A stretch of DNA of 11,051 bases from a virus (lineage: Duplodnaviria; Heunggongvirae; Uroviricota; Caudoviricetes): the IMG/VR virus record IMGVR_UViG_2671180296_000007, positions 1 through 11,051 of that record; one strand, 5' to 3'. The first letter of the stretch is position 1, and every line of letters begins with the position of its first letter. Below the pieces are notes generated by a model. The model did no database searches. It was given only the letters and a program-made list of their open reading frames with translations, and was not told the DNA's origin. The translations under genes and the position numbers were made by a program. Shown here piece by piece: positions 1 to 11,051 of this stretch.

Positions 1-1242
1 ATGGCGAGAAAAACACCCCCATTAACCACAGTGCAGATCAAAGCAGCCAGACCAGCGCAAAAGGAGTACACCCTACAGGACGGCGGTGGGCTTTTTCTCC
101 TGGTAAAACCGTCCGGATCAAAACTCTGGCGATTTTCCTACTACCGACCATCGGACAAAAAAAGAATATTGCTGAGTTTTGGATCGCTTGAAGATGTTTC
201 CCTGGCTGATGCCAGAAAACGCCGTAGCGAGTACAGGACGTTAATCAGTGCCGGAACTGACCCGCAGGACCATGAGAAGAAAAAACGAGAGGCAGAGGCC
301 CGAAGACAAGGGAACACGTTCGAAAATGTGGCGGCGGCATGGTACCAGGTGAAAATCAGCCAGAATCTGGCCCCCAACACGATTAAAGACATCTGGCGTT
401 CGCTGGATAAATATGTATTCCCGTTCATCGGCAACACGCCAATAGATACCCTCACTGCCCGAAGGTTCGTTGAGGTGCTTACACCCATCAAGGAGCGCGG
501 CAACCTGGAAACACTCAAGCGGGTTTTACAGCGCGTTAATGAGGTAATGGATTACGCCGCCAACAGTGGGCTGATTGATGCCAATCCGGCTATGAATGTG
601 CGTAAGGCGTTCCCCTCCCCTGTAAAAAAACATATGCCAACAATCCGCCCCGAACAGTTGCCGGAGCTTATGCAGGCTTTATCCGTATCAGCAACAGAAC
701 GGCAGACCAGATTACTGATTGAATGGCAGCTACTGACTGTAACCCGTCCGGTTGAAGCATCGTCAGCACGCTGGGAAGAAATCGACATGGACGCGCAACA
801 ATGGACGATCCCCGCCGGACGCATGAAGATGCGGCGTGATCACGTTATCCCGCTTTGTAGTCAGGCTATGGCGGTACTGGAGGCCATGAAGCCAATCAGC
901 CACCACCGCGAGCACGTTTTCCCTAGCCTGAAAGACCCACGGCAGCCTATGAACAGCCAGACCGCCAACGCAGCATTGCGGCGAATGGGATTCGCTGGCG
1001 TGCTGGTGTCTCATGGATTACGCGCCATATTCAGCACAGCAGCGAACGAGGAAGGATTCGAGCCGGACGTAATCGAGGCCGCACTCGCACACGTGGACAC
1101 GAACGAGGTAAGGCGAGCATATAACCGAAGTAACTACCTGGAAAAGCGCGTGGTGCTTATGCGCTGGTGGGGGGAATTTGTAGAGGCCGCAGCAACCGGA
1201 GTGACCATAGCCAGTGGTAAAAGGGGTATCCGTGCCGTGTAA
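1..1242 (+). CDS. int: Tyrosine recombinase / phage integrase, P4-type
   Basis: Full ORF of 413 aa. The N-terminus (KEYTLQDGGGLFLLVKPSGSKLWRFSYY) is typical of the P4-integrase N-terminal domain, and the C-terminal half has the recombinase-like HGLRAIFST region and a tyrosine near the C-terminus (RRAYNRSNYLEKR). Recognised from family knowledge, not searched. Confidence 0.9.
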   Translation: MARKTPPLTTVQIKAARPAQKEYTLQDGGGLFLLVKPSGSKLWRFSYYRPSDKKRILLSFGSLEDVSLADARKRRSEYRTLISAGTDPQDHEKKKREAEARRQGNTFENVAAAWYQVKISQNLAPNTIKDIWRSLDKYVFPFIGNTPIDTLTARRFVEVLTPIKERGNLETLKRVLQRVNEVMDYAANSGLIDANPAMNVRKAFPSPVKKHMPTIRPEQLPELMQALSVSATERQTRLLIEWQLLTVTRPVEASSARWEEIDMDAQQWTIPAGRMKMRRDHVIPLCSQAMAVLEAMKPISHHREHVFPSLKDPRQPMNSQTANAALRRMGFAGVLVSHGLRAIFSTAANEEGFEPDVIEAALAHVDTNEVRRAYNRSNYLEKRVVLMRWWGEFVEAAATGVTIASGKRGIRAV

Positions 1243-1343
1243 CTGTACAAAAAACCAGTAAAAGCGATGCAAACCATGCTAAACCATCGTATAATCACCA
1301 TATACAGAGAGACCCGACTCTTGAAATTCAAGGAGTTATCCGA

Positions 1344-1586
1344 GTGTTTTTCAATGAAAAGGTATCCCCTGCCTATGGTGAAGGCCTTCAACTGGCCTTA
1401 ATGGCAAATCGTGAATTCTGGTCAACGTACGATCCGGAAGACAAATCAACTGCCCCCACAAAACACGAGGTAGTCAGTTTTTTGCGCTCGCGTGGCGCAT
1501 CGAAAAATCTGGCTGAAAGTATCGACAAGGTGCTGAGGCCCACCAGCCTTAAATGCGGTGGGCGACCTAAGAAGTGGAAACGGTAA
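1344..1586 (+). CDS. Hypothetical small protein (80 aa from GTG, or 61 aa from the ATG at 1401)
   Basis: ORF preceded by AGGAG (1331-1335) 8 nt before GTG 1344 and followed by a hairpin plus T-run. Basic C-terminal tail GGRPKKWKR. No family recognised. Confidence 0.35.
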   Translation: MFFNEKVSPAYGEGLQLALMANREFWSTYDPEDKSTAPTKHEVVSFLRSRGASKNLAESIDKVLRPTSLKCGGRPKKWKR

Positions 1587-1591
1587 TCACA

Positions 1592-1621
1592 ATAGCGGCC
1601 CCTTGCGGTCGCTATTTTTTT
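1592..1621 (+). terminator. Rho-independent terminator-like hairpin plus T-run
   Basis: Imperfect stem atagcggcc / ggtcgctat immediately followed by tttttttt, 6 nt after the stop of the 1344-1586 ORF. Confidence 0.4.
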
Positions 1622-1657
1622 GCAGAAAGAAAAGCGTAATCAATAAGATAAAAAACA

Positions 1658-1691
1658 GTGGGTACCGTTTTAAAACGGTGGGTACTGTTTT
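1658..1691. promoter_or_regulatory. Putative operator: perfect 16-bp palindrome within two direct 14-bp repeats
   Basis: ACCGTTTTAAAACGGT (1664-1679) is a perfect palindrome. It sits inside tandem copies GTGGGTACCGTTTT (1658-1671) and GTGGGTACTGTTTT (1678-1691), about 70 bp upstream of the alpA start. Confidence 0.4.
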
Positions 1692-1756
1692 TCCCGCCCT
1701 GCCCTGTTTTACCGTATTTATCACCGGAATACGCCGGATTAACGAGGTAAAACATA

Positions 1757-1963
1757 GTGGAAACAATCAGAAAAATTCTTACCCGTCAGGAAGTAAAAAA
1801 TATTCTGCGCATCAAGGCAGACAGTTCGCTACAGGACATGATCAACGCCGGAAAATTCCCGAAAGGCTTCAAAATCGGTCTGCGCCGTGTTGGCTGGTAT
1901 GAAGATGAAGTGCTGGCCTGGCTGAAAGAGCGCGAGGAAGAAGCGCGCGGAACGGCTGCGTAA
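1757..1963 (+). CDS. alpA: AlpA-family DNA-binding regulator (phage transcriptional regulator / excisionase-like)
   Basis: 68 aa with GTG start. Pattern LTRQEV..IL.I...S..DMINAGKFPKGFKIG.RRVGWYEDEVLAWL fits the AlpA signature. Position directly after int is the canonical P4/PICI arrangement. Confidence 0.8.
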   Translation: METIRKILTRQEVKNILRIKADSSLQDMINAGKFPKGFKIGLRRVGWYEDEVLAWLKEREEEARGTAA

Positions 1964-2110
1964 TGGTGTGAGGCGTAACGCGATGAACATAACAAAAAGC
2001 GCCCCGTTGCCGGAGCGCCCTTGCGAACAATTAACCTGCTGCGAAAAAAATGGATCAGTGCAGTGGAATTATATCAACCGTGTGACGAAGCGCCACAATT
2101 GCCGGATAAC

Positions 2111-2142
2111 AGGCAAAACAAAGGCCACCCGCTACGGTGGCC
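2111..2142 (-). terminator. Putative rho-independent terminator for the minus-strand small gene
   Basis: Stem ggccacc (2123-2129) / ggtggcc (2136-2142) with a 6-nt loop. On the minus strand it is followed by TTTGTTTTGCCT. Confidence 0.4.
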
Positions 2143-2245
2143 CCTCGACACAAGCTACACGTTATCCCCAACGCATGAGCATAGCCAACAATGCCACATT
2201 TGCGGCTGGTGGGCAAAGCGTAACCGGAAAAAAATTCCGGTGGAG

Positions 2246-2425
2246 CTACTCCTGCTCTTTGGCCTTGCGGCGCTGGCGGCGTTTGATCTCGCCGCGCATG
2301 GCTGCACTTATAAACTGCCCTGTACTTTCGCCTTCTTCTTTCACGTTTTCCATGCCTTCAATAATTTCATGGGCAATACGTGCAGTTACAGATTGTGATT
2401 TTGCATTCTTTGGACCTGTTGCCAT
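2246..2425 (-). CDS. Small basic-tailed protein (59 aa), putative transcriptional regulator of the divergent switch
   Basis: Start set at the internal ATG (2425) because a perfect AAGGAG lies 5 nt upstream on the minus strand. Sequence MATGPKNAKSQSVTARIAHEIIEG...KRRQRRKAKEQE. Divergent from the Icd-like operon with shared repeated operators. Function inferred from context only. Confidence 0.5.
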   Translation of the reverse strand: MATGPKNAKSQSVTARIAHEIIEGMENVKEEGESTGQFISAAMRGEIKRRQRRKAKEQE

Positions 2426-2445
2426 GTCTAACTCCTTATGTTTTT

Positions 2446-2540
2446 GGTGTAAGACAATATACACGAAAAAAAATTATTTTGAAGGGTTGACGTGTAAGAC
2501 ACTATTATTTTACATTGTGTCTTACACCTTGTTGATACAA
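2446..2540. promoter_or_regulatory. Divergent promoter/operator region with three copies of TGTAAGACAC
   Basis: Direct copies at 2447-2456 and 2492-2502; inverted copy at 2517-2527, giving a perfect 11-bp inverted repeat with 14-bp spacer. Candidate -35 TTGACG (2487-2492) and -10 TACATT (2511-2516) for the + operon. Candidate minus-strand -35 TTCAAA / -10 TATATT overlap the operator copy at 2447-2456. Confidence 0.45.
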
Positions 2541-2624
2541 GGTGCAGAAACGACGAAACCCGGCAGTGCGCTAACACTAACCGGGCTTCTAACCACCAAC
2601 GATAACGAGAGTATCGAGGTAGCT

Positions 2625-3239
2625 ATGTTAAATCATACCATACACCCGCAAGGGCGGGACTCGCACAACCTGAATAAATATATCTGGCGTTTTATCGCCC
2701 TGAGCACAGCACAACCGCGCGTGATTACCATTGAGGCCACCAGCGAACAGGAAGCACGCCAGAAAAACCAGTTGATCGCCATTGCCAGCCAGGGCTATGA
2801 TTTATCCGCACCAGCAAAATCTGGTGCCGGGATTGGCGTCCTGGTATTTAACGAAGCGCACAACACGCGCCCTGCGTGTTTTTTTGTGCCGGATAGTCAC
2901 ACCTTATCAATGGTGGGCTGTATGGGGGCGGAGCAATCCGCGCCGGGTTCTTCGTTAACCGGTTACGCCAACCCTGTACAGTCTACCGCCAGCGAAATTG
3001 GCGTTTCCTGCGGTGGGTTTATTAAACCTAACGAAGAGGCTGCCAACATGGCTACTATCCCTGCCCTCGTACATTCTCAAACTGCCTTTATCTGGCGCTT
3101 TATCATCTTTGGCGCGTCAGAATCCCAAATCATCCACGTAACCGCCTGGACGGAACGCGAAGCGCGTAGTCGTTGCCCGTCCGGTTGTGTTGCTGTATTC
3201 GCCGCCCGTATTCGTCAGGAGGTGCGCCATGTGCAATAA
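2625..3239 (+). CDS. Icd-like (host cell division inhibitor-like) protein with two copies of the Icd motif
   Basis: The track ORF 1968-3239 is trimmed to ATG 2625 (GAGG 6 nt upstream), because the upstream part overlaps the minus-strand gene and the promoter region. Two copies of the motif: YIWRFIALSTAQPRVITIEATSEQEAR (N-terminal) and FIWRFIIFGASESQIIHVTAWTEREAR (C-terminal). Family assignment is from memory of the Icd-like signature. Confidence 0.5.
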   Translation: MLNHTIHPQGRDSHNLNKYIWRFIALSTAQPRVITIEATSEQEARQKNQLIAIASQGYDLSAPAKSGAGIGVLVFNEAHNTRPACFFVPDSHTLSMVGCMGAEQSAPGSSLTGYANPVQSTASEIGVSCGGFIKPNEEAANMATIPALVHSQTAFIWRFIIFGASESQIIHVTAWTEREARSRCPSGCVAVFAARIRQEVRHVQ

Positions 3240-3699
3240 CACCCGTCCGGACGCAGCCGCCGAAGCTATCAGAACGCTGATGCACGCGCTGATTAATATT
3301 TCTGTTATCGCAGACATGGCGCATAAACACGCCACCAGCGAAACAGAATATGCCGGGGCTTTCGTTCCTCACTCACTGGCTGTTATGCAATTTAGTGCTG
3401 ATATGGCACTGAATGAGGCTAAAGCCATCCTGATTGCTGATTGTGAAAATGGGGGGGTTATGCGTGATGATCGTTTTAATGCCCTGAAACAGGAATTTTC
3501 CGGCGTATCTGATGATGCGAGTGATGCGCTTTCGTCAATATCCGAACTGATAAGAGCGGCCTTTTTCTTACTTGGCACGAAAGAAAATAAAACAACGGGG
3601 TTTGATGTACTAAATATCACCGCTGATTATGCGGAATATGTGGCAGAAGTCGATTTAAGAAAAATCCCGAATTGTCGCGGCATTAATAACGCTTCTTGA
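3229..3699 (+). CDS. Hypothetical protein (156 aa)
   Basis: ATG 3229 preceded by AGGAGG (3217-3222) with a 6-nt spacer; overlaps the end of the upstream gene by 11 nt, suggesting one operon. Acidic, alanine-rich. No family recognised. Confidence 0.6.
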   Translation: MCNNTRPDAAAEAIRTLMHALINISVIADMAHKHATSETEYAGAFVPHSLAVMQFSADMALNEAKAILIADCENGGVMRDDRFNALKQEFSGVSDDASDALSSISELIRAAFFLLGTKENKTTGFDVLNITADYAEYVAEVDLRKIPNCRGINNAS

Positions 3700-3777
3700 G
3701 CCTGTAATAAATGAATCGCAGGAAATAGAAACATTGCACGACAGATATAAAGAACAGCACACCGGAGAATAAAAATA

Positions 3778-4077
3778 ATGAAACTTAAATATTCTGGCTT
3801 AACTGCCAGTGGCAACACTCACCCTAAATTTACGCGCGGTGATATTTACCGCGACCAGTACGGCGGCACGGTAATGATTAAGGGCGTGGCGGGACGGTGC
3901 GTAACTTACCGCCGTGAAGGTTACGAATATGATTGCGTGATGCCTGTTTATCAGTTCCGGCGTGATTTTTCTCTGGTACAGGCAGCGCCCCGCAGTAAAC
4001 CAACCAGCAGGGAGAAAGCACGCGCCAATATTCAGAAGATGAAAACCATGATTAAAGGATTCAGGGGTAAAAAATGA
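3778..4077 (+). CDS. Hypothetical small protein (99 aa), translationally coupled to the primase
   Basis: GGAG 3762-3765 upstream of ATG 3778. The stop overlaps the primase start in an ATGA motif (4074-4077). Confidence 0.6.
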   Translation: MKLKYSGLTASGNTHPKFTRGDIYRDQYGGTVMIKGVAGRCVTYRREGYEYDCVMPVYQFRRDFSLVQAAPRSKPTSREKARANIQKMKTMIKGFRGKK

Positions 4078-5828
4078 AACTGGCACCGAACGTAAAACAG
4101 CAGTCACGCGGCATAAAACACAAAGAAACAGAAGTCATTATTTTTGCGGGTAGTGATGCCTGGTCACACGCGAAACAATGGCAGGAACATGATGCGCGTA
4201 TGGCCGGAGATAATGAGCCTCCTGTGTGGCTTGGGGAGCAGCAGCTATCCGAACTGGATAATCTGCAAATTGTGCCGGAAGGCCGAAAATCAGCACGCAT
4301 ATACAGGGCCGGATATCTTGCGCCAGTAATGATAAAGGCGATTGGCCAGAAGCTGGCGGCGGCAGGCGTACAGGATGCAAATTTTTACCCTGATGGTATG
4401 CACGGTCAGAAGGTGGAGAACTGGAGCGAATATCTGGCCCGTGAGCGCCAGAATCTTTCTGATGGTCTGGTCATTGAGCTTCCGGTAATGCAAAAGGCGC
4501 AACTTTCGCAGATGGCGGACAGTGAGCGCGCACAGATGCTTGCTGGTCGATTTGATGGCGTTTGTGTGCATCCGGAAAGTGAAATCGTTCACGTATGGCG
4601 CGGCGGGGTATGGTGTCCGGTCAGCACAATGGAACTTAGCCGCGAAATGGTGGCGATCTATTCAGAGCACAGGGCCACTTTCAGCAAGCGCGTAATCAAT
4701 AACGCCGTGGAAGCGTTAAAAGTTATTGCCGAACCAATGGGCGAGCCGTCCGGCGATTTGTTGCCGTTCGCCAATGGTGCGCTTGACCTGAAAACGGGGG
4801 AATTTTCCCCGCACACGCCGGAGAACTGGATCACCACGCACAACGGCATTGAGTACACGCCACCAGCACCTGGGGAGAACATCCGCGATAACGCGCCAAA
4901 CTTTCATAAATGGCTTGAGCACGCAGCCGGAAAAGACCCGCGCAAGATGATGCGTATATGTGCCGCGCTGTACATGATTATGGCGAACCGGTACGACTGG
5001 CAGATGTTTATTGAGGCCACCGGAGACGGCGGGAGCGGTAAAAGTACATTCACGCACATAGCCAGCCTTCTGGCAGGGAAACAGAACACGGTGAGCGCGG
5101 AGATGACATCGCTTGATGATGCTGGTGGACGTGCGCAGGTTGTCGGGAGTCGTCTTATCGTCCTGGCTGACCAGCCGAAATATACAGGCGAAGGAACGGG
5201 CATCAAGAAAATCACGGGCGGCGACCCCGTGGAAATAAACCCGAAATATGAGAAGCGTTTTACGGCGGTAATCAGGGCGGTGGTGCTGGCTACCAACAAT
5301 AACCCGATGATATTCACCGAACGGGCCGGAGGTGTGTCACGTCGTCGCGTAATTTTCCGTTTCGACAATATCGTCAGTGAGGCCGAAAAAGACAGGGAGC
5401 TACCGGAAAAGATTGCGGCTGAAATCCCTGTCATTATCCGCCGATTGCTGGCGAACTTTACCGACCCTGAGAAGGCACGGGCTTTACTACTGGAACAGCG
5501 TGACGGTGATGAAGCACTGGCAATAAAGCAACAGACGGATCCGGTTATTGAGTTTTGCCAGTTCCTGAATTTTCTGGAGGAAGCGCGCGGCCTGATGATG
5601 GGTGGCGGTGGTGATTCAGTGAAGTACACGACCAGGAACAGCCTTTATCGCGTCTATCTGGCGTTTATGGCGTACGCAGGCAGGAGCAAACCGCTAAACG
5701 TAAATGACTTTGGCAAGGCTATGAAGCCAGCCGCGAAAGTTTACGGACATGAATATATTACGCGGAAAGTTAAGGGAGTAACGCAGACTAACGCAATAAC
5801 AACAGACGAGTGCGACGCGTTTTTATAA
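4074..5828 (+). CDS. DNA primase/helicase, P4-alpha C-terminal type (D5_N-like domain plus SF3 P-loop NTPase)
   Basis: 584 aa. Walker A GDGGSGKST (about 5018-5046), Walker B-like LIVLADQP, downstream NNNP motif. Overall resemblance to phage/plasmid primase P4-family C-terminal domain proteins (PICI pri-rep type). Confidence 0.85.
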   Translation: MKLAPNVKQQSRGIKHKETEVIIFAGSDAWSHAKQWQEHDARMAGDNEPPVWLGEQQLSELDNLQIVPEGRKSARIYRAGYLAPVMIKAIGQKLAAAGVQDANFYPDGMHGQKVENWSEYLARERQNLSDGLVIELPVMQKAQLSQMADSERAQMLAGRFDGVCVHPESEIVHVWRGGVWCPVSTMELSREMVAIYSEHRATFSKRVINNAVEALKVIAEPMGEPSGDLLPFANGALDLKTGEFSPHTPENWITTHNGIEYTPPAPGENIRDNAPNFHKWLEHAAGKDPRKMMRICAALYMIMANRYDWQMFIEATGDGGSGKSTFTHIASLLAGKQNTVSAEMTSLDDAGGRAQVVGSRLIVLADQPKYTGEGTGIKKITGGDPVEINPKYEKRFTAVIRAVVLATNNNPMIFTERAGGVSRRRVIFRFDNIVSEAEKDRELPEKIAAEIPVIIRRLLANFTDPEKARALLLEQRDGDEALAIKQQTDPVIEFCQFLNFLEEARGLMMGGGGDSVKYTTRNSLYRVYLAFMAYAGRSKPLNVNDFGKAMKPAAKVYGHEYITRKVKGVTQTNAITTDECDAFL

Positions 5829-5839
5829 TTTTTTGTAAT

Positions 5840-6070
5840 TGCTGTCTACCCTGTCTACCTGAGTAAAGAAAAATACATTTAATTCAGTGCATTAAGTTAT
5901 GTAGATAGCCTTTTTTTACTATCTACCCACTATCTACCCTCTCTACCTGATTTTACCTGAATCAGACAGGGAGGTAGACACGGGGTAGATAGTGGATAAA
6001 AGCACTCTACCCCGCTGAAAGCCGCGCCATTACTGGCATGAGGGCCACTAAGGTAGATAAGGTAGACAAG
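5840..6070. repeat. Iteron array / putative origin of replication
   Basis: Hexamer core TCTACC on + at 5845, 5854, 5922, 5933, 5942 and 6006. Its complement GGTAGA at 5973, 5984, 6052 and 6061. Arms form an imperfect inverted repeat (ccactatctacc 5927-5938 versus ggtagatagtgg 5984-5995). AT-rich stretch 5872-5920 and a DnaA-box-like TTATCCACT (complement of 5991-5999). Located immediately downstream of the primase gene. Confidence 0.6.
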
Positions 6071-6116
6071 GGGAGGCACAACTCAAAACTTTTTAAACGA
6101 GGGGGTAAAAATAAAT

Positions 6117-6395
6117 ATGCACACTTCAGGGAAATTTAATAAATCACTCAAAAAACGCAGAGACAGAACAGAACCGAAATATCGCGCGTTAGACATGACA
6201 GAGCACGCTTTAAAGGTGGCAATCAGAACGATAGACCGCCACGCGGGGGAAGGATACGCGAAAGCACATCCCGACCTGATAAGCGCATTCATGACCACGA
6301 CGGCGGCAAATTTTGCCACGCTGACAGAGCGGGAGATTGCCGAAGCGGAACAGGTAACAACAATCAACGTTAAAACCGGAGAGGTGGAATCATGA
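6117..6395 (+). CDS. Hypothetical protein (92 aa)
   Basis: GAGGGGG upstream of ATG 6117. Stop overlaps the ssb start (ATGA at 6392-6395). No family recognised. Confidence 0.55.
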   Translation: MHTSGKFNKSLKKRRDRTEPKYRALDMTEHALKVAIRTIDRHAGEGYAKAHPDLISAFMTTTAANFATLTEREIAEAEQVTTINVKTGEVES

Positions 6396-6814
6396 CAGCA
6401 CAGATAGCCGCTTACGGGCGGCTGGTGGACGACCCGCAGGTAAAACAGACCAGCAAGGGCACACCGATGACGCTGGCGCGTATGGCGGTCCCCCTTCCGT
6501 GCAGCCAGGCAGATGACGGAACGGCGACGATGTGGTTATCCGTCCTGGCATTTGGCAGACAGGCCGAAGCACTGGAAAGGCACCGCAAGGGTGAACTCCT
6601 GAGCGTGGCGGGTAACATGCAGATCAGCCAGTGGACTGGGCAGAACGGAGAAACGCGGCAGGGCTGGCAGGTTATCGCAGACAGTGTAATCAGTGCGCGA
6701 ACGGCGCGACTGGGCGGCAAAAAAGGTCAACAGGGCCAGGCTACTGACGCGCTGAACAGGGCAAAACAACAGGCGGGGAATGATGATCCGTACGGGGATA
6801 ACATACCGTTTTAA
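6392..6814 (+). CDS. ssb: Single-stranded DNA-binding protein (SSB-like OB fold)
   Basis: 140 aa. Pattern GRLVDDPQVKQT..G...LARMAV...W..VLAFGRQAE......KGELLSVAG.....W....G..R follows the SSB OB-fold signature. Gly/Gln-rich linker and C-terminal DDPYGDNIPF, resembling the acidic ...DDDIPF tip of E. coli SSB. Confidence 0.8.
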   Translation: MTAQIAAYGRLVDDPQVKQTSKGTPMTLARMAVPLPCSQADDGTATMWLSVLAFGRQAEALERHRKGELLSVAGNMQISQWTGQNGETRQGWQVIADSVISARTARLGGKKGQQGQATDALNRAKQQAGNDDPYGDNIPF

Positions 6815-6829
6815 GCGACGAGTGACAGA

Positions 6830-6852
6830 AGCCGGAGCAATCCGGCTTTTTT
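6830..6852 (+). terminator. Rho-independent terminator
   Basis: Stem agccgga / tccggct with a GCAA loop followed by TTTTTT, 16 nt after the ssb stop. Confidence 0.6.
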
Positions 6853-6900
6853 ACGGGTCCTCCTAGCGGGGTGGGCCTGAACACGGGGCGGGAGGCGCGG
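6853..6900 (+). other. Degenerate cos-like sequence (cosQ-like ACGGGTCCT plus mutated cosN)
   Basis: acgggtcctcctagcggggtgggcctgaacacggggcgggaggcgcgg parallels the intact cos at 9294-9343 (acgggtcctttccggcatatggacctgttacggggcggcgacctcgcgcg). The 12-nt cohesive-end core is altered (GGGCGGGAGGCG versus GGGCGGCGACCT). Confidence 0.4.
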
Positions 6901-7032
6901 AAAAAAGCGCATTTTTGTGATTTTATCGTCATCATCATCATGAGCGTAATTTATTGTTTTTAATTGTTTTGATGCAAAAAAGATGATGTTTGTGGTTAAT
7001 TTTTGTTCGACATCTTTGCAGGCAGATAAAAA

Positions 7033-7069
7033 AGCCCGATAAGGTCAGAGGTGGCTTATCGGGCTTTTG
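7033..7069. terminator. Bidirectional terminator-like hairpin
   Basis: Stem agcccgataag (7033-7043) / cttatcgggct (7055-7065) flanked by an A-run upstream and a T-run downstream. Confidence 0.5.
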
Positions 7070-7100
7070 CATATGAGGCTTTTTGGTGCACTGACACACA

Positions 7101-7198
7101 TGATCGGGATCATCATTTCATAATTTGCAACACAACTCAACATCATTGCATAAAATGCAATCATGATTATAATCATAACTGGATGAACATCCAGTTAT
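7101..7198 (+). promoter_or_regulatory. Near-consensus sigma70-like promoter with nested palindromic operators upstream of the capsid operon
   Basis: -35 TTGCAT (7146-7151), 16-bp spacer, -10 TATAAT (7168-7173). Palindromes: TGATCggGATCA (7101-7112), TTGCATaaaATGCAA (7146-7160), ATGATTATAATCAT (7163-7176), and a perfect 11-2-11 ATAACTGGATGaaCATCCAGTTAT (7175-7198) over the predicted transcription start. Confidence 0.5.
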
Positions 7199-7229
7199 GA
7201 TTTTTTAAGTCAAAGAGGAATTTCTTACT

Positions 7230-7436
7230 ATGGCTGAAGAGAAAAAAGGCGGTGTTTCGGTGTACATAAGCCCCGAAATCGTGGAGGTGCTCAAGCAGCG
7301 CCACAAAAAAAACTATGAGGCTGGCGTGGCGGCTGGACTGGATCCGCTGATGACGCCGGAGCCGTCGATAGGTTCACTTGTACGCTCTTATTTACTTGCG
7401 GCGCTTGGGATGCATAAAAATTATGGGGGTGAATAA
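7230..7436 (+). CDS. Hypothetical small protein (68 aa), first gene of the capsid operon
   Basis: AAGAGGAA (7213-7220) upstream of ATG 7230. Stop overlaps the capsid gene start (TAATG). No family recognised. Confidence 0.55.
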   Translation: MAEEKKGGVSVYISPEIVEVLKQRHKKNYEAGVAAGLDPLMTPEPSIGSLVRSYLLAALGMHKNYGGE

Positions 7437-8491
7437 TGGCAGGCAAAGCAACGGCACTTAACACTAACCAGCTTTTCGCGTACCTGAATCGCGGGGATAT
7501 TGCGGAATTTAAATTCAGTCCGCTGTTTACCACGCTGTTTTTCCCGAACGTGGCGACATTCAACACCCAAAGCATCATGCTGGACACCCTGGACATTGAA
7601 GAGGTTACGATGTCGGCGTTTTGTTCGCCTATGGTGGGTAGTCAGGTCCAGCGCGATAAAGGGTACGAAACCAGCACGATTAAACCTGGATACATGAAGC
7701 CGAAGCACGAAATCGATCCAACGAAAACCATCATGCGTATGGCTGGAGAAGATCCGGCACAGCTTAATGACCCAACCTATCGCCGTATGCGCCTGATTAC
7801 TGGCAACATGCGCCGCCAGATAAACGCGATTAAAGCGCGCGTGGAATGGCTGGCGGTGAATGCGGTAACGACCGGAAAAAACATCATTGAGGGCGAAGGC
7901 ATAGAACGCTATGAAATCGACTGGAAGATACCGGAAAAAAACATCATAGAGCAGGCCAAAGGCCGTAAATGGTCCGAGCAGGACAAAGAAACCCACGATC
8001 CAATCTATGATATCGAGCTTTATGCGGATCAAGCAGGTTGCCCCTCCAACGTCATGATCATGGGCGCTGAGGTATGGCGAACGTTACGCAGCTTTAAAAA
8101 ATTCCGCGAACTGTACGATCTTTCCCGTGGTTCAGAGTCCTCCGCAGAGCTGGCCTGTAAAAACCTGGGCGAAGTGGTGAGCTTTAAAGGATATCTGGGC
8201 GATATTGCCCTTATCGTCTATTCCGGCAAATACACTGACAGCGACGGCACCGAAAAATATTTCCTTGAGCCTGATTTGCTGGTCCTGGGCAACACCAACA
8301 ATAAAGGGCTGGTGGCCTATGGTGCGATTATGGATCAGGAAGCGGTCAGAACGGGCGCAACGCAAAACATGTTTTACCCGAAAAACTGGATTGAGGACGG
8401 CGATCCGGCGATTGAGTACGTGCAGACGCACAGCGCACCGCAGCCGGTTCCGGCAGATATTCGCAAATTTGTTACCGTCAAAATTGGTTAA
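7436..8491 (+). CDS. Major capsid protein, lambda gpE family
   Basis: 351 aa. Matches to lambda E recalled from memory: FKFSPLFTTLFF (lambda FKFDPLFLRLFF), PGYMKPKHEI (PGYVKPKHEV), DPTYRRMR (DPAYRRRR), SFKGYLGDIALIVYSGKY (SYKGMYGDVAIVVYSGQY), YPKNW, and full-length collinearity. GGGGG RBS 6 nt upstream. Confidence 0.9.
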   Translation: MAGKATALNTNQLFAYLNRGDIAEFKFSPLFTTLFFPNVATFNTQSIMLDTLDIEEVTMSAFCSPMVGSQVQRDKGYETSTIKPGYMKPKHEIDPTKTIMRMAGEDPAQLNDPTYRRMRLITGNMRRQINAIKARVEWLAVNAVTTGKNIIEGEGIERYEIDWKIPEKNIIEQAKGRKWSEQDKETHDPIYDIELYADQAGCPSNVMIMGAEVWRTLRSFKKFRELYDLSRGSESSAELACKNLGEVVSFKGYLGDIALIVYSGKYTDSDGTEKYFLEPDLLVLGNTNNKGLVAYGAIMDQEAVRTGATQNMFYPKNWIEDGDPAIEYVQTHSAPQPVPADIRKFVTVKIG

Positions 8492-8502
8492 CGGGGGATT
8501 CT

Positions 8503-8838
8503 ATGGACACTCCATACATTGAGTTATTTGCAGGCAGTCAGCAGGTTGCCACGACGCTGGTACATTTTGCCGCTGATGCTGGCGTTATTCAGGAATTTAC
8601 CCCGCTGATGCTGGCGGACAATGGCGAATTTAAGCCGTGGGATGGTCAGGAATCTGGCAAGGCTGTTTATCTGACGGCGTATCCCGTGGACACGTCAACG
8701 CAGAAATCAGCACAGTGTTACAAGACGGGGATATTCAATATTGCCGCCGTTAACTGGCCTGAGAGCGTCGACACCGACGCGAAAAAATGTGCCGCCTTTG
8801 CGGGTTCTGGTGTATCTGTTCAGCCGCTGGCGCGATAA
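8503..8838 (+). CDS. Head decoration protein, lambda gpD family
   Basis: 111 aa. TPLMLADNGEFKPWDG and C-terminal YKTGIFNIAAVNWPESVDTDAKKCAAFAGSGVSV parallel lambda D (TPLMLDTSSRKLVAWDG ... [35 protein letters not shown]). Confidence 0.8.
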   Translation: MDTPYIELFAGSQQVATTLVHFAADAGVIQEFTPLMLADNGEFKPWDGQESGKAVYLTAYPVDTSTQKSAQCYKTGIFNIAAVNWPESVDTDAKKCAAFAGSGVSVQPLAR

Positions 8839-8851
8839 GCAGGGGGGAACG

Positions 8852-9265
8852 ATGGCAACGAATGAAAGTATCATGGCGCTACCGCTGGCGAGTAAATTTA
8901 AAGCTGAAGCGCGGGCAATGGCTGACAGATGTCTATCAACCTACGAAGCTATATATCAACTTAACAAACTGGAAGAACAGGACAAGCCGCGCGCTGATGC
9001 GATTATGTCGCTTCATGAATCTGACGACTATCAGCCGCTGTTACGTGCAATGGCAAACGTGCCTTGTATTGATGTTGATACGGCTAAAAACATCCTGAAC
9101 ATGACCATAGAACAGGAACGCCAGAAGGTTGCACCAGAGCTTACCGCAGCCTTTGAAAACTTTATGGACATGCACAGCCCACAAGCCGTATCAGCTGGCA
9201 TGGCATACGATGGCAGAAACCCGGGCGATGACGGCGACATTGATCGCATACTGAAAACCATCTGA
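8852..9265 (+). CDS. Hypothetical acidic protein (137 aa), last gene before cos
   Basis: The track ORF 8741-9265 is trimmed to ATG 8852, preceded by AGGGGGG. It is followed by a terminator and then cos. No family recognised. Confidence 0.55.
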   Translation: MATNESIMALPLASKFKAEARAMADRCLSTYEAIYQLNKLEEQDKPRADAIMSLHESDDYQPLLRAMANVPCIDVDTAKNILNMTIEQERQKVAPELTAAFENFMDMHSPQAVSAGMAYDGRNPGDDGDIDRILKTI

Positions 9266-9271
9266 GACAAG

Positions 9272-9293
9272 GCCGGAGAAATCCGGCTTTTTT
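9272..9293 (+). terminator. Rho-independent terminator
   Basis: Stem gccgga / tccggc with a GAAA loop followed by TTTTTT. Nearly identical to the terminator at 6830-6852. Confidence 0.6.
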
Positions 9294-9500
9294 GCGGGTC
9301 CTTTCCGGCATATGGACCTGTTACGGGGCGGCGACCTCGCGCGTTTTCACTATTTATGAAAATTTTTCGGGATCCATGTCCGGTTTCTCTGCAAGTTAAC
9401 CATATGAAAAATATAAAAACATGCTTTCCATGAACCGGACATGCGCAAAAAAACAGACACTAAAACCGGACATCGTACCCGTTAACCGGAAGTGTGCAAA
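9294..9500 (+). other. Lambda-type cos site, forward orientation (cosQ-like, cosN, candidate cosB)
   Basis: cosQ-like GGGTCCTTTCCGG (9296-9308). GTTACG then the 12-nt cohesive-end sequence GGGCGGCGACCT (9326-9337). Downstream TTTTCACTATTTATGAAAATTTTTCGG closely matches the lambda left end (CGCGGGTTTTCGCTATTTATGAAAATTTTCCGG). Candidate terminase-binding repeats AACCGGACAT at 9433, 9464 and 9484, with an inverted copy at 9374-9384. Confidence 0.8.
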
Positions 9501-9699
9501 AATCACACGCATTGCTGCGCGTGATTAACAATTTATCGGCTTTACTGTTCTGTATAGGCTGGGTGGCGTCATGCCGTAGCCGTTCTCCGTGCCAGCATGG
9601 AATAATCCGTAGTTACAGAGCGGTAAAGTTAAAAATCACTTTCTGTTACGCCATCAAATACGCGATACAACAACCATGTGTTTTTACAAAACCATTTGA

Positions 9700-9898
9700 T
9701 ATCATTGAATTTTTTCACATTAATGACATCAAAATACATCGTAAGGTTGTTGTATTTATTTTATTTTATTTTTACCTTACTTATCAATTAGATATACCAA
9801 ACAATTAAACAACAACCACCCCATCAAAAAATCTCATAAATAGCGAAAAACCGCGAGGTCGCCGCCCCGTAACGGGCCATAATTCCTGGAAGGACCCG
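9700..9898 (-). other. Second lambda-type cos site, inverted orientation (cosQ-like, cosN, different candidate cosB)
   Basis: On the minus strand: cgggtccttccagg ... gttacgGGGCGGCGACCTcgcggtttttcgctatttatga. The cosN core is the complement of 9856-9873. The inward-facing flank carries GGTTGTTGT-type repeats (minus-strand reading), not AACCGGACAT. Confidence 0.7.
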
Positions 9899-9931
9899 AC
9901 GACACCAGACTATCAGAACGATGGGGGCACA

Positions 9932-10213
9932 ATGACAGAAGCCGAACTACTGCGATTAATCCGTCGCGTTGCCGGAATCAGCCAGCAGGCTGACGAACAG
10001 GCCACGCAGCCGGACAGCGTGACCGCAGAAAATTATGTTCGTGTGGTTGCTGAGGTGATGCACCGTGATGGTATCCAGCTTAATGATGCGGATATGCGCG
10101 ACATACGGATCCGCGTTCTTGAAATGCTGGCCTACCGTCGCCGGATACAGACGTACAGGGAAAAAGCCAAAATAACGTACCAGTGGAAGAAGCCGGAGCG
10201 GTTACGGCGGTAA
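9932..10213 (+). CDS. Hypothetical protein (93 aa)
   Basis: GGGGG 5 nt upstream of ATG 9932. First ORF downstream of the cos region. No family recognised. Confidence 0.55.
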   Translation: MTEAELLRLIRRVAGISQQADEQATQPDSVTAENYVRVVAEVMHRDGIQLNDADMRDIRIRVLEMLAYRRRIQTYREKAKITYQWKKPERLRR

Positions 10214-10233
10214 CTTGCTGAAGTTAAAGCATA

Positions 10234-10332
10234 ATGCAAATTTGCACTCTGGCCTAACCCGTTAATATTTCAGCAAAGTGCAAATTTGCGTTCTGTAGCT
10301 GGTGGCTGGCAGAATGTAAATTTACATTCTGG
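10234..10332. repeat. Three tandem about 19-bp repeats, each containing a 12-bp palindrome
   Basis: aTGCAAATTTGCActctgg (10234-10252), gTGCAAATTTGCgttctg (10279-10296), aTGTAAATTTACAttctgg (10314-10332). They lie in a convergent intergenic region between the stops of the flanking genes. Confidence 0.6.
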
Positions 10333-10336
10333 TGAT

Positions 10337-10636
10337 TTAATCATCTGATTTACCCAGCCCGTACCGGATTACCGTACAGTGAGCGCCATCGCTACCGATA
10401 CGCACATCAAAGCGGGGTTCGCGCACTTTCACGCGGTACAGGATCCCATCATTTACCATAGCGTTTAACGTTCGTCGGGTTGCCTCTATGTGATATCGCT
10501 GATATTCGGAACCATAGAGCAGCACTGTCACACCACGAACATCAAAAGGCGGATCTCCGGCCTCCACCCGCACCCAATCGCGATATTCAGGTTTGTAAAG
10601 TTCAAGAATCTGTTTTTTGTGCCTGGTCATTCTCAT
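10337..10636 (-). CDS. Hypothetical protein (99 aa)
   Basis: The track ORF is trimmed to ATG 10636 (MRMTRHKK...), which has AAGGAA 7 nt upstream on the minus strand. The longer N-terminal extension is hydrophobic and low-complexity and lacks an RBS. No family recognised. Confidence 0.5.
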   Translation of the reverse strand: MRMTRHKKQILELYKPEYRDWVRVEAGDPPFDVRGVTVLLYGSEYQRYHIEATRRTLNAMVNDGILYRVKVREPRFDVRIGSDGAHCTVIRYGLGKSDD

Positions 10637-10742
10637 GTGTGATTCCTTATTGTGGGACAGTACTGTCATACAATAAGCTATGAGGGAAATTATCAAAAGA
10701 ACGGAAACCAACCATTCAGATTTAACAGGTATCAATGGGATT

Positions 10743-11051
10743 ATGCTTATGGTGCATGATGACAAAGCGGAAGAACTGGAAGCGAAAGGTTTATGGCGAC
10801 GGGCGGCTAATCGCTGGGGTGAGTTACTGAAACAGGCGGCAAGTGATGAAGCGCGTCAGTATGTAACGGAACGACGAACGGCATGTATCCGGAAGGCAAC
10901 CATAACCCGGGAACCGGAAAGAGACCTGATTTGTGCCATAAGAACCGCCGCCACAAAAACACTAACGGACATGGGGATCGACCTGAAAAAAGAAGATCCA
11001 CTGCGGGGCATTCAGCACGGACATACAAAGCGGGATAAACGCAGGAAGTAA
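10743..11051 (+). CDS. PerC-family transcriptional regulator-like protein
   Basis: N-terminal AEELEAKGLWRRAANRWGELL recalls the conserved PerC/Pch-family motif, from memory and not searched. Start is uncertain (10680, 10743 or 10749); 10743 is chosen to leave room for a divergent promoter. The perfect palindrome GACAGTACTGTC (10656-10667) lies in the intergenic region. Confidence 0.45.
   Translation: MLMVHDDKAEELEAKGLWRRAANRWGELLKQAASDEARQYVTERRTACIRKATITREPERDLICAIRTAATKTLTDMGIDLKKEDPLRGIQHGHTKRDKRRK

Follow-up and report, generated by a model that had tools for sequence, protein, structure and literature searches.

The region analysed here, positions 7230 to 9265 of an 11,051-nt window (the window being the whole stretch of DNA under study, i.e., positions 1 to 11,051 of the IMG/VR virus record IMGVR_UViG_2671180296_000007), carries a cassette of four genes encoding, in this order, a 68-amino-acid (aa) protein, a homolog of the phage lambda major capsid protein E, a homolog of the lambda head decoration protein D and a 137-aa protein (Table 1). 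Almost certainly, it corresponds to the late cassette ('capsid morphogenesis') of a Gram-negative phage-inducible chromosomal island (PICI) of the EcCICFT073 family. The four open reading frames (ORFs) lie exactly at the coordinates listed in Table 1 and are tightly packed: the end of the 68-aa gene and the start codon of the capsid gene overlap in a TAATG, so that both genes are predicted to be translationally coupled, and the next two gaps measure 11 and 13 nt. The gene order, E then D, is the opposite of that of lambda. It had been called at these coordinates by a first-pass annotation made from the sequence alone, and the call is upheld by the Pfam, PHROGs and BLASTP searches, which agree well beyond chance.

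The 351-aa product matched nearly the whole Phage_cap_E model of Pfam (E = 2.7e-52; 178 bits, for a cut-off of 22.9), and it corresponded to the major head protein of PHROGs (8e-109). In the PDB search, it was found to be 97% identical to 3BQW (2.9e-233) and to match the lambda gpE structure 7VI9 (7.5e-83), and BLASTP gave 44% identity with lambda gpE (4e-94). No phage capsid protein of INPHARED was more than about 47% identical to it, and a search of 50,697 phage records with blastn settings gave no match to the cassette DNA. The E proteins of the PICIs of Salmonella, Kluyvera, Cedecea, Superficieibacter and Kosakonia were 53-68% identical to that of the window, and all the PICI E proteins compared share a C-terminal motif, PGDPAIEYVQTHSAPQP, which lambda lacks. 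The 111-aa product matched the HDPD model of Pfam (2.1e-18; 67 bits, for a cut-off of 29.1) and the head decoration family of PHROGs (5e-28). It was nearer to the SHP protein of phage 21 (1TD0, 2.6e-14) than to lambda gpD (1C5E, 4.2e-10) in the PDB search, and BLASTP gave 38% identity with lambda gpD (3e-14).

The two small genes that flank the E-D pair had both been described beforehand as unknown, a description that holds for the first of them, which has no family match of known function, and fails for the second, which is related to a lambda head protein. The 68-aa protein matched phrog_3255 (8.5e-46), a family without assigned function, and had no Pfam, NCBIfam, PDB-sequence or Foldseek match. 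Its AlphaFold2 model, with a predicted local distance difference test (pLDDT) value of 71, consists of two helices with no fold match; the ribbon-helix-helix fold that we had suspected from the sequence was dropped, as it received no support from this model. The 68-aa gene also occurs in a Salmonella PICI, and is lacking in the PICIs that are embedded in the E gene of their helper phage (hereafter, the helper-embedded PICIs).

As for the 137-aa protein, several lines of evidence identify it as a homolog of the C-terminal domain that the lambda scaffold Nu3 and the protease gpC have in common. It matched positions 493-567 (of 583) of phrog_53, the head maturation protease family (2.6e-8). An exhaustive HMMER search retrieved only eight proteins among 1.84 billion representatives, including a 195-aa protein made of three repeats (P0041), which bridges the two families since it matches both the C-terminus of lambda Nu3 (2e-16) and the 137-aa protein (2e-10). 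Furthermore, the hhalign comparison of the profile of the 137-aa family with that of the Nu3/gpC C-termini gave a probability of 97.3% and an E-value of 2.7e-11 over residues 41-118. No S49 peptidase match was found in the 137-aa protein, and the N-terminal part of Nu3 was not covered by the alignment. The alignment being limited to residues 41-118 and no S49 match being present, the 137-aa protein is better regarded as a scaffold-domain homolog than as a Nu3 ortholog, and the cassette as a whole comprises E, D and a scaffold-domain protein, with no protease domain. We found no literature linking PICIs to Nu3. The 137-aa protein had no match in Pfam, NCBIfam or PDB, and its AlphaFold2 model, all-helical and of low confidence (pLDDT 48), was too poor for a fold search. 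The name 'phage head-tail connector protein' that RefSeq gives to some copies was unsupported in every library scanned. The C-terminal motif of Nu3 (IM..L..EA.GRE ... PGMT...A..IL) occurs three times in P0041 and seemingly twice in the 137-aa protein (residues ~5-35 and ~50-85), which hints that the copy number of the scaffold domain may vary. No link was apparent between the presence of the 137-aa gene and the N-terminal arm of E.

Over its full length of 2036 bp, the cassette is 92.6% identical in nucleotide sequence to positions 1,393,707-1,395,741 of E. coli CFT073 (genes c1498-c1501), which belong to an island located between roxA and phoQ and show the same gene order. The cassette is therefore already known: it is the c1498-c1501 cassette of EcCICFT073, which serves as the prototype of the classical Gram-negative PICIs, and the first-pass annotation was wrong to set it apart from classical PICIs. 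In 2018, Fillol-Salom et al. (PMC6092414) identified c1499 as a capsid gene and c1500 as a decoration gene and deleted both, and their supplement lists c1501 as a protein of 137 aa. The PDB entry 3BQW is entitled 'Putative capsid protein of prophage', and the capsid homolog of EcCICFT073 is mentioned in the review by Dokland (2019; PMC6893505). A capsid gene was reported in 21 of the 29 reference Gram-negative PICIs by Mageeney et al. (2023; PMC10111431), and SatelliteFinder counts 'capsid morphogenesis' among the core components of PICIs.

The ratio of non-synonymous to synonymous substitution rates (dN/dS) was calculated pairwise among the copies of the window, CFT073 and Nissle (and also E423 for the 68-aa gene), and pooled over 80 IMG/VR loci (L013-L092) picked by their match to E. 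For E, the pairwise values were 0.07-0.13 and the pooled value was 0.13. For D, they were 0.085-0.13 (0.30 for CFT073 versus Nissle, where dS is only 0.04) and 0.10. The primase gene of the island gave pairwise values of 0.06-0.10, i.e., purifying selection on E and D is about as strong as on the primase. The pairwise values were 0.15-0.25 for the 137-aa gene; those of the 68-aa gene were 0.38-0.39 against CFT073 and Nissle, 0.76 for CFT073 versus Nissle (with the same low dS of 0.04) and 0.2-0.3 against E423, for a value of 0.27 over the IMG/VR loci. E was intact in all 80 IMG/VR loci, a count biased by their choice through E, D in 77 of the 78 assessable ones and the 68-aa gene in 79 of the 80. 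The first-pass annotation had named the pseudogenisation of E and D in related copies as a possible refutation of its proposal; almost all copies are intact, the capsid gene of the closest complete-genome relative being frameshifted (see below).

In the PICIs of Salmonella, Kluyvera, Cedecea, Superficieibacter and Kosakonia, E and D always occur together and in that order. The C-terminal signature shared by the PICI E proteins, and the absence of any phage E protein more than 47% identical to that of the window, suggest a lineage that has long been resident and has an E-D pairing of its own. Together, these data indicate that the cassette is a long-resident and selected satellite module, neither a recent capture nor a relic. 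Of 5426 complete E. coli genomes, 597 (~11%) match the cassette over 80% or more of the query, the carriers including O157:H7, O55:H7, O26:H11, Nissle 1917 and CFT073. A further ~7% of E. coli genomes had only diverged matches (60-80% nucleotide identity), and, of the two that were inspected, one turned out to be a cassette that has diverged and the other the E-D pair of a helper-embedded PICI. The cassette also acts like a mobile module, being paired with at least three integrase types across the 80 IMG/VR loci, where the replication modules vary (a primase 89-100% identical to that of the window, a primase ~48% identical, or a partial match to it), as do the packaging options (RppA-type, Nu1-like or none). 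Three of these loci (L062, L063 and L074) also hold lambda-like portal, protease or FII genes in the fetched stretch.

Upstream of the cassette, a region with repeated TTGCA/TGCAA motifs and a perfect TATAAT is kept with hardly a base changed in CFT073, in Nissle and in the island of E423, the coding DNA of which is only ~65% identical, and it probably acts as a promoter. It is followed by a hairpin, just 5' of the ribosome-binding site, which is conserved in CFT073 and Nissle, not in E423, and could be a terminator or an operator. The intrinsic terminator that ends the cassette, ~30 bp ahead of the first cosN site, is conserved in CFT073 and Nissle.

The window itself, as annotated from ORFs, Pfam and Rfam, is a single co-oriented island running from the start of the integrase gene to the stop of a PerC gene, the backbone being annotated with Pfam, Rfam and the RefSeq annotation of relatives. 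In agreement with the PICI/P4-like backbone noted in the first-pass annotation, an integrase, AlpA, P4-type immunity RNAs, DUF4222, a D5/P4-type primase and SSB were found, and AlpA, the primase and SSB are co-oriented as expected for a Gram-negative PICI. The integrase gene stands at the end of the island, ~200 bp from tRNA-Pro in relatives, and the island, of ~11 kb between tRNA-Pro and yejO, falls within the 10-15 kb range of PICIs and, as expected for them, has no tail, lysis, portal or large terminase genes. The two complete genomes nearest to the window (97.8% and 94.7% identical over its length) carry the island between tRNA-Pro/yejM on one side and yejO/narP on the other, with no morphogenesis genes outside the window on either side. 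Its neighbours being core genes, the island is not a fragment of an ordinary prophage, which disposes of an objection formulated with the original proposal. Its statement that no portal, protease/scaffold, terminase or tail genes are visible also stands, the scaffold-domain homolog excepted: the tblastn searches with lambda Nu1, A, W, B, C, FI and FII detected no homolog in the window (best E = 0.085, for W; 0.088 for FI), and the hallmarks of capsid-forming PICIs, namely a portal, a protease, head-tail connectors and a large terminase, were missing from both the window and its flanks. The isrK RNA (80 bits) adjoins the C4 antisense RNA (73 bits) in the Rfam annotation; they form a pair of P4 CI/seqA-type immunity RNAs, as noted for some Gram-negative PICIs, and fall within a spurious 423-aa ORF (1968-3239). 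Directly past the second cos site, a conserved 93-aa gene (9932-10213; phrog_1561; dN/dS 0.17-0.47) has no family match, and neither has a 142-aa ORF on the minus strand (10337-10765) that overlaps the start of the PerC gene.

Table 1. Features of the cassette and of the island that carries it (positions in the window)
Feature	Position	Strand	Basis or remark
Integrase	1-1242	+	Pfam integrase domains
AlpA	1757-1963	+	PF05930
isrK and C4 immunity RNAs	2808-2993	+	Rfam
DUF4222	3778-4077	+	Pfam
D5_N/P4-type primase (D5_N, DUF5906, Pox_D5)	4074-5828	+	Pfam
92-aa protein	6117-6395	+	no identity assigned
SSB	6392-6814	+	Pfam
Promoter-like region (repeated TTGCA/TGCAA motifs; perfect TATAAT at 7168-7173)	7110-7175	+	read from sequence
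Hairpin (14-bp stem and T run)	7171-7202	+	terminator scan
Four-gene cassette	7230-9265	+	followed by two cosN sites, a 93-aa gene and a PerC-family gene
68-aa protein, homolog of the gene upstream of c1499 in EcCICFT073	7230-7436	+	phrog_3255
Lambda E-family major capsid protein (HK97 fold, 351 aa), ortholog of EcCICFT073 c1499	7436-8491	+	PF03864
Head decoration protein (gpD/SHP family, 111 aa), ortholog of EcCICFT073 c1500	8503-8838	+	PF02924
137-aa helical protein, ortholog of EcCICFT073 c1501	8852-9265	+	starting at the ATG within the ORF listed as 8741-9265
Intrinsic terminator (GCCGGA-GAAA-TCCGGC and T6)	9272-9293	+	read directly; not listed by the terminator scan
First cosN, exact lambda cohesive-end sequence GGGCGGCGACCT	9326-9337	+	sequence match
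rppA remnant (last 22 codons only)	9558-9623	+	tblastn with CFT073 RppA, residues 123-144 only
Second cosN, inverted	9856-9867	-	exact lambda cosN

The two cosN sites lie within a 74-bp inverted repeat of 85% identity, as described for cos1 and cos2 of EcCICFT073, and the alignment showed the flank of the first site to be the reverse complement of the cos2 flank of EcCICFT073. No Rpp (redirecting phage packaging) or TerS-like gene stands between them, rppA, the gene by which EcCICFT073 redirects packaging, being deleted apart from its remnant, and the low-GC filler between the two sites, in the region 9266-9931, contains no convincing gene. The window copy thus reads as a degraded member of the family, given that an Rpp or TerS-like gene between the cos sites is typical of the cos-type E. 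coli PICIs, though not of all PICIs, and the loss of rppA probably impairs the island's preferential packaging. The arrangement of the window is shared by only two of the 5426 complete E. coli genomes, and both of these close relatives carry pseudogenes between alpA and DUF4222, one of them having a frameshifted capsid gene as well. This rare lineage may be decaying, though in the window E, D and the genes on either side of them are all intact.

From the full-length family matches of E and D, the Nu3/gpC homology, the compact and coupled operon, the low dN/dS values and the co-occurrence of E and D, together with the conserved upstream region and the terminator placed just before cos, we propose that the most likely role of the cassette, to which we give an even chance, would be a structural one, in the shells of the transducing particles. 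In such a scheme, a lambda-like helper would induce the island, and the island E protein, alone or mixed with the helper gpE, would build lambda-type procapsid shells on the helper portal, the Nu3-like protein providing scaffold contacts in the lineages that have it. The island D protein would lock the expanded shell, and the protease, terminase, connectors and tails of the helper would complete the particle. As the helper E and D proteins could substitute for those of the island, the cassette would be accessory in the laboratory, and the loss of island genes would be masked. More tentatively, EcCICFT073-type islands may build the shell from their own E, D and Nu3-like mini-scaffold, while the helper would lend its portal, protease, terminase and tails, in which case the size or stability of the shell might differ.

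Several observations weigh against this structural role. Helper-dependent induction, packaging and transfer have been shown for EcCICFT073 only. In this island, the deletion of c1499 or c1500 neither reduced transfer by the native helper nor relieved the interference with lambda (PMC6092414), the c1499::cat island was moved by phi80 at up to 1e6 per ml, the induction of CFT073 gave no band of PICI monomers and, among the cloned genes of the region, only c1503 (rppA) inhibited lambda, the interference being fully accounted for by RppA. No particle proteomics for the island was found in the literature searched. The closest complete-genome relative (L001; NZ_CP169399, 19028-20081) has a frameshifted capsid gene. 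Finally, the 137-aa gene is disrupted in about seven of 76 IMG/VR loci (intact in 69), and it is lacking in a Salmonella PICI, in the PICIs of Kluyvera and Superficieibacter that were examined and in the helper-embedded PICIs of E. coli (L006), Cedecea and Kosakonia. Regarding the published experiments, it should be kept in mind that the only lambda and phi80 lysogens with EcCICFT073 carry c1499::cat islands (Table S7 of PMC6092414). As c1499 is replaced by cat in them, the phage-sized DNA observed with lambda can only come from an island without its own capsid gene, and the published conclusion that lambda packages the island in phage-sized capsids was drawn from such an island. The replacement of c1499 by the marker in the lambda and phi80 islands, and the masking by the helper E and D proteins, are reasons why a shell built by the island could have been missed. 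We had also considered that the c1501::tetA marker disrupted the scaffold-like gene, and withdrew this view since the primers (Table S6 of PMC6092414) place the insertion just after the stop codon of c1501, which is intact; the insertion enlarges the island.

Among the other roles envisaged, a redirection of capsid size appears rather unlikely. According to it, the island E and the Nu3-like protein, the latter as an alternative internal scaffold, would force the assembly of small shells fitting one or two island genomes and excluding the helper genome, in a way similar to Ccm of the Staphylococcus aureus pathogenicity island (SaPI) SaPIbov5 and to CpmB of SaPI1, a short protein that shares the C-terminal, capsid-binding end of the helper scaffold. 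The island is indeed about a quarter of the length of lambda, and it encodes a capsid homolog plus a protein sharing only the C-terminal domain of the scaffold, which is the logic of CpmB action. The related PmCI172 has both a capsid homolog and small capsids (PMC6092414), and the lambda experiment that yielded phage-sized DNA used, per the strain table, the island devoid of c1499. This proposal is difficult to reconcile with the lack of a monomer band upon induction of CFT073, the cassette of which is intact, and with the interference that persisted without c1499 or c1500 and is explained by RppA. We regard as unlikely the idea, put forward by Mageeney et al. (PMC10111431), that such capsid genes are a back-up copy compensating for an interrupted or repressed helper E gene, and are merely carried along in chromosomal PICIs. 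It fits with the presence of the same E-D pair in the helper-embedded PICIs located in lambda-like E genes, and with the three IMG/VR loci holding lambda-like portal, protease or FII genes, but most copies are chromosomal, far from any helper, and yet under strong purifying selection, and the island E is only ~43% identical to lambda-type E proteins, so that a simple substitution is not assured.

A role in interference or defence, in which E and D would either poison the assembly of capsids by lambdoid phages other than the helper or serve as decoys to capsid-sensing host systems, seems quite improbable to us. PICIs commonly interfere with phages, and the conservation of genes devoid of transfer phenotype could be understood in this manner; however, the expression of single genes did not reduce the plating of lambda, phi80 or HK97, except for c1503, which acted on lambda and phi80, no cassette protein had a PADLOC match, and poisoning alone would hardly account for a scaffold domain and a cognate decoration protein. 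Lastly, it is very improbable that the cassette is what remains, in decay, of late genes captured from a helper, or that it is a piece of an ordinary prophage. Though PICIs do capture late genes (PMC10111431), and decay is visible elsewhere in this copy (the rppA deletion) and in its relatives (the pseudogenes and the frameshifted capsid gene), such an origin is opposed by the lack of any phage homolog more than 47% identical and by the conservation of the cassette across genera, and it is largely refuted by dN/dS values of ~0.1, nearly all copies being intact, and by the core genes that flank the island.

The structural role remains the one we favour. E and D are as constrained as a replication gene, yet the sole published tests of these genes gave no phenotype. 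Should E and D enter the transducing particles, the view of how classical PICIs exploit lambda-like helpers would change, and the finding would be relevant to the PICI-based delivery vehicles built on EcCICFT073. The cassette being already known, the present analysis is of use for the assignment of a scaffold domain to the 137-aa protein, for the data on selection and for the observation that the capsid gene was missing from the island in the key negative experiment.

Comparison with known systems places the island closest to EcCICFT073, with which it shares the same four genes in the same order (the capsid and decoration proteins being both 97% identical), the two inverted lambda-type cos sites downstream and the backbone of int, alpA, DUF4222, primase and SSB. 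The two islands differ in that EcCICFT073 is integrated between roxA and phoQ, and that of the window at tRNA-Pro/yejM; rppA (c1503) is full-length there and reduced to 22 codons here, where the first cos flank is of the cos2 type; PerC lies upstream of the cassette there and at the right end here; and the 68-aa proteins are only 68% identical. The helper-embedded PICIs (11capE type; Mageeney et al. 2023) similarly have PICI-type E then D genes (53-56% identity) with the same C-terminal signature. In contrast to the window island, they sit inside the helper E gene, lack the 68-aa and 137-aa genes and carry AlpA-like and Nu1-like genes after D. In the three such loci that we looked at (L009, Cedecea; L011, Kosakonia; L006, E. 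coli), a lambda-like E gene is split by an element with its own PICI-type E-D pair, and a Nu1-like gene follows D in L006 and L011.

The capsid-forming PICIs (EcCIEDL933) are likewise satellites with an int-alpA-primase backbone and head proteins, but they encode an HK97-type capsid, portal, protease, connectors, HNH, and the small and large terminases TerS and TerL, and form their own small capsids, whereas only E, D and a scaffold domain are present in the window island. SaPIbov5 Ccm is, similarly to the island E, a satellite-encoded homolog of the helper capsid protein; Ccm and CpmB belong, however, to unrelated families and to islands of Gram-positive hosts, and small capsids have been shown for SaPIs, not for the EcCICFT073 family. 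With the lambda head genes, the cassette shares E, D and the Nu3 C-terminal domain, and cosN is identical. The order is Nu3-D-E in lambda and E-D-Nu3-like in the island, the identities amount to 44% (E), 38% (D) and ~25% (Nu3), and lambda has the protease domain, portal, W, FI, FII and terminase, none of which was found in the island. P4 resembles the island by its P4-type primase, AlpA/Vis-like regulator, CI/C4-type immunity RNA and use of the helper cos; no Pfam match to Sid, Psu or Delta was detected in any ORF scanned, and P4 relies on external scaffolds, whereas the head proteins of the island are homologs of the helper shell proteins.

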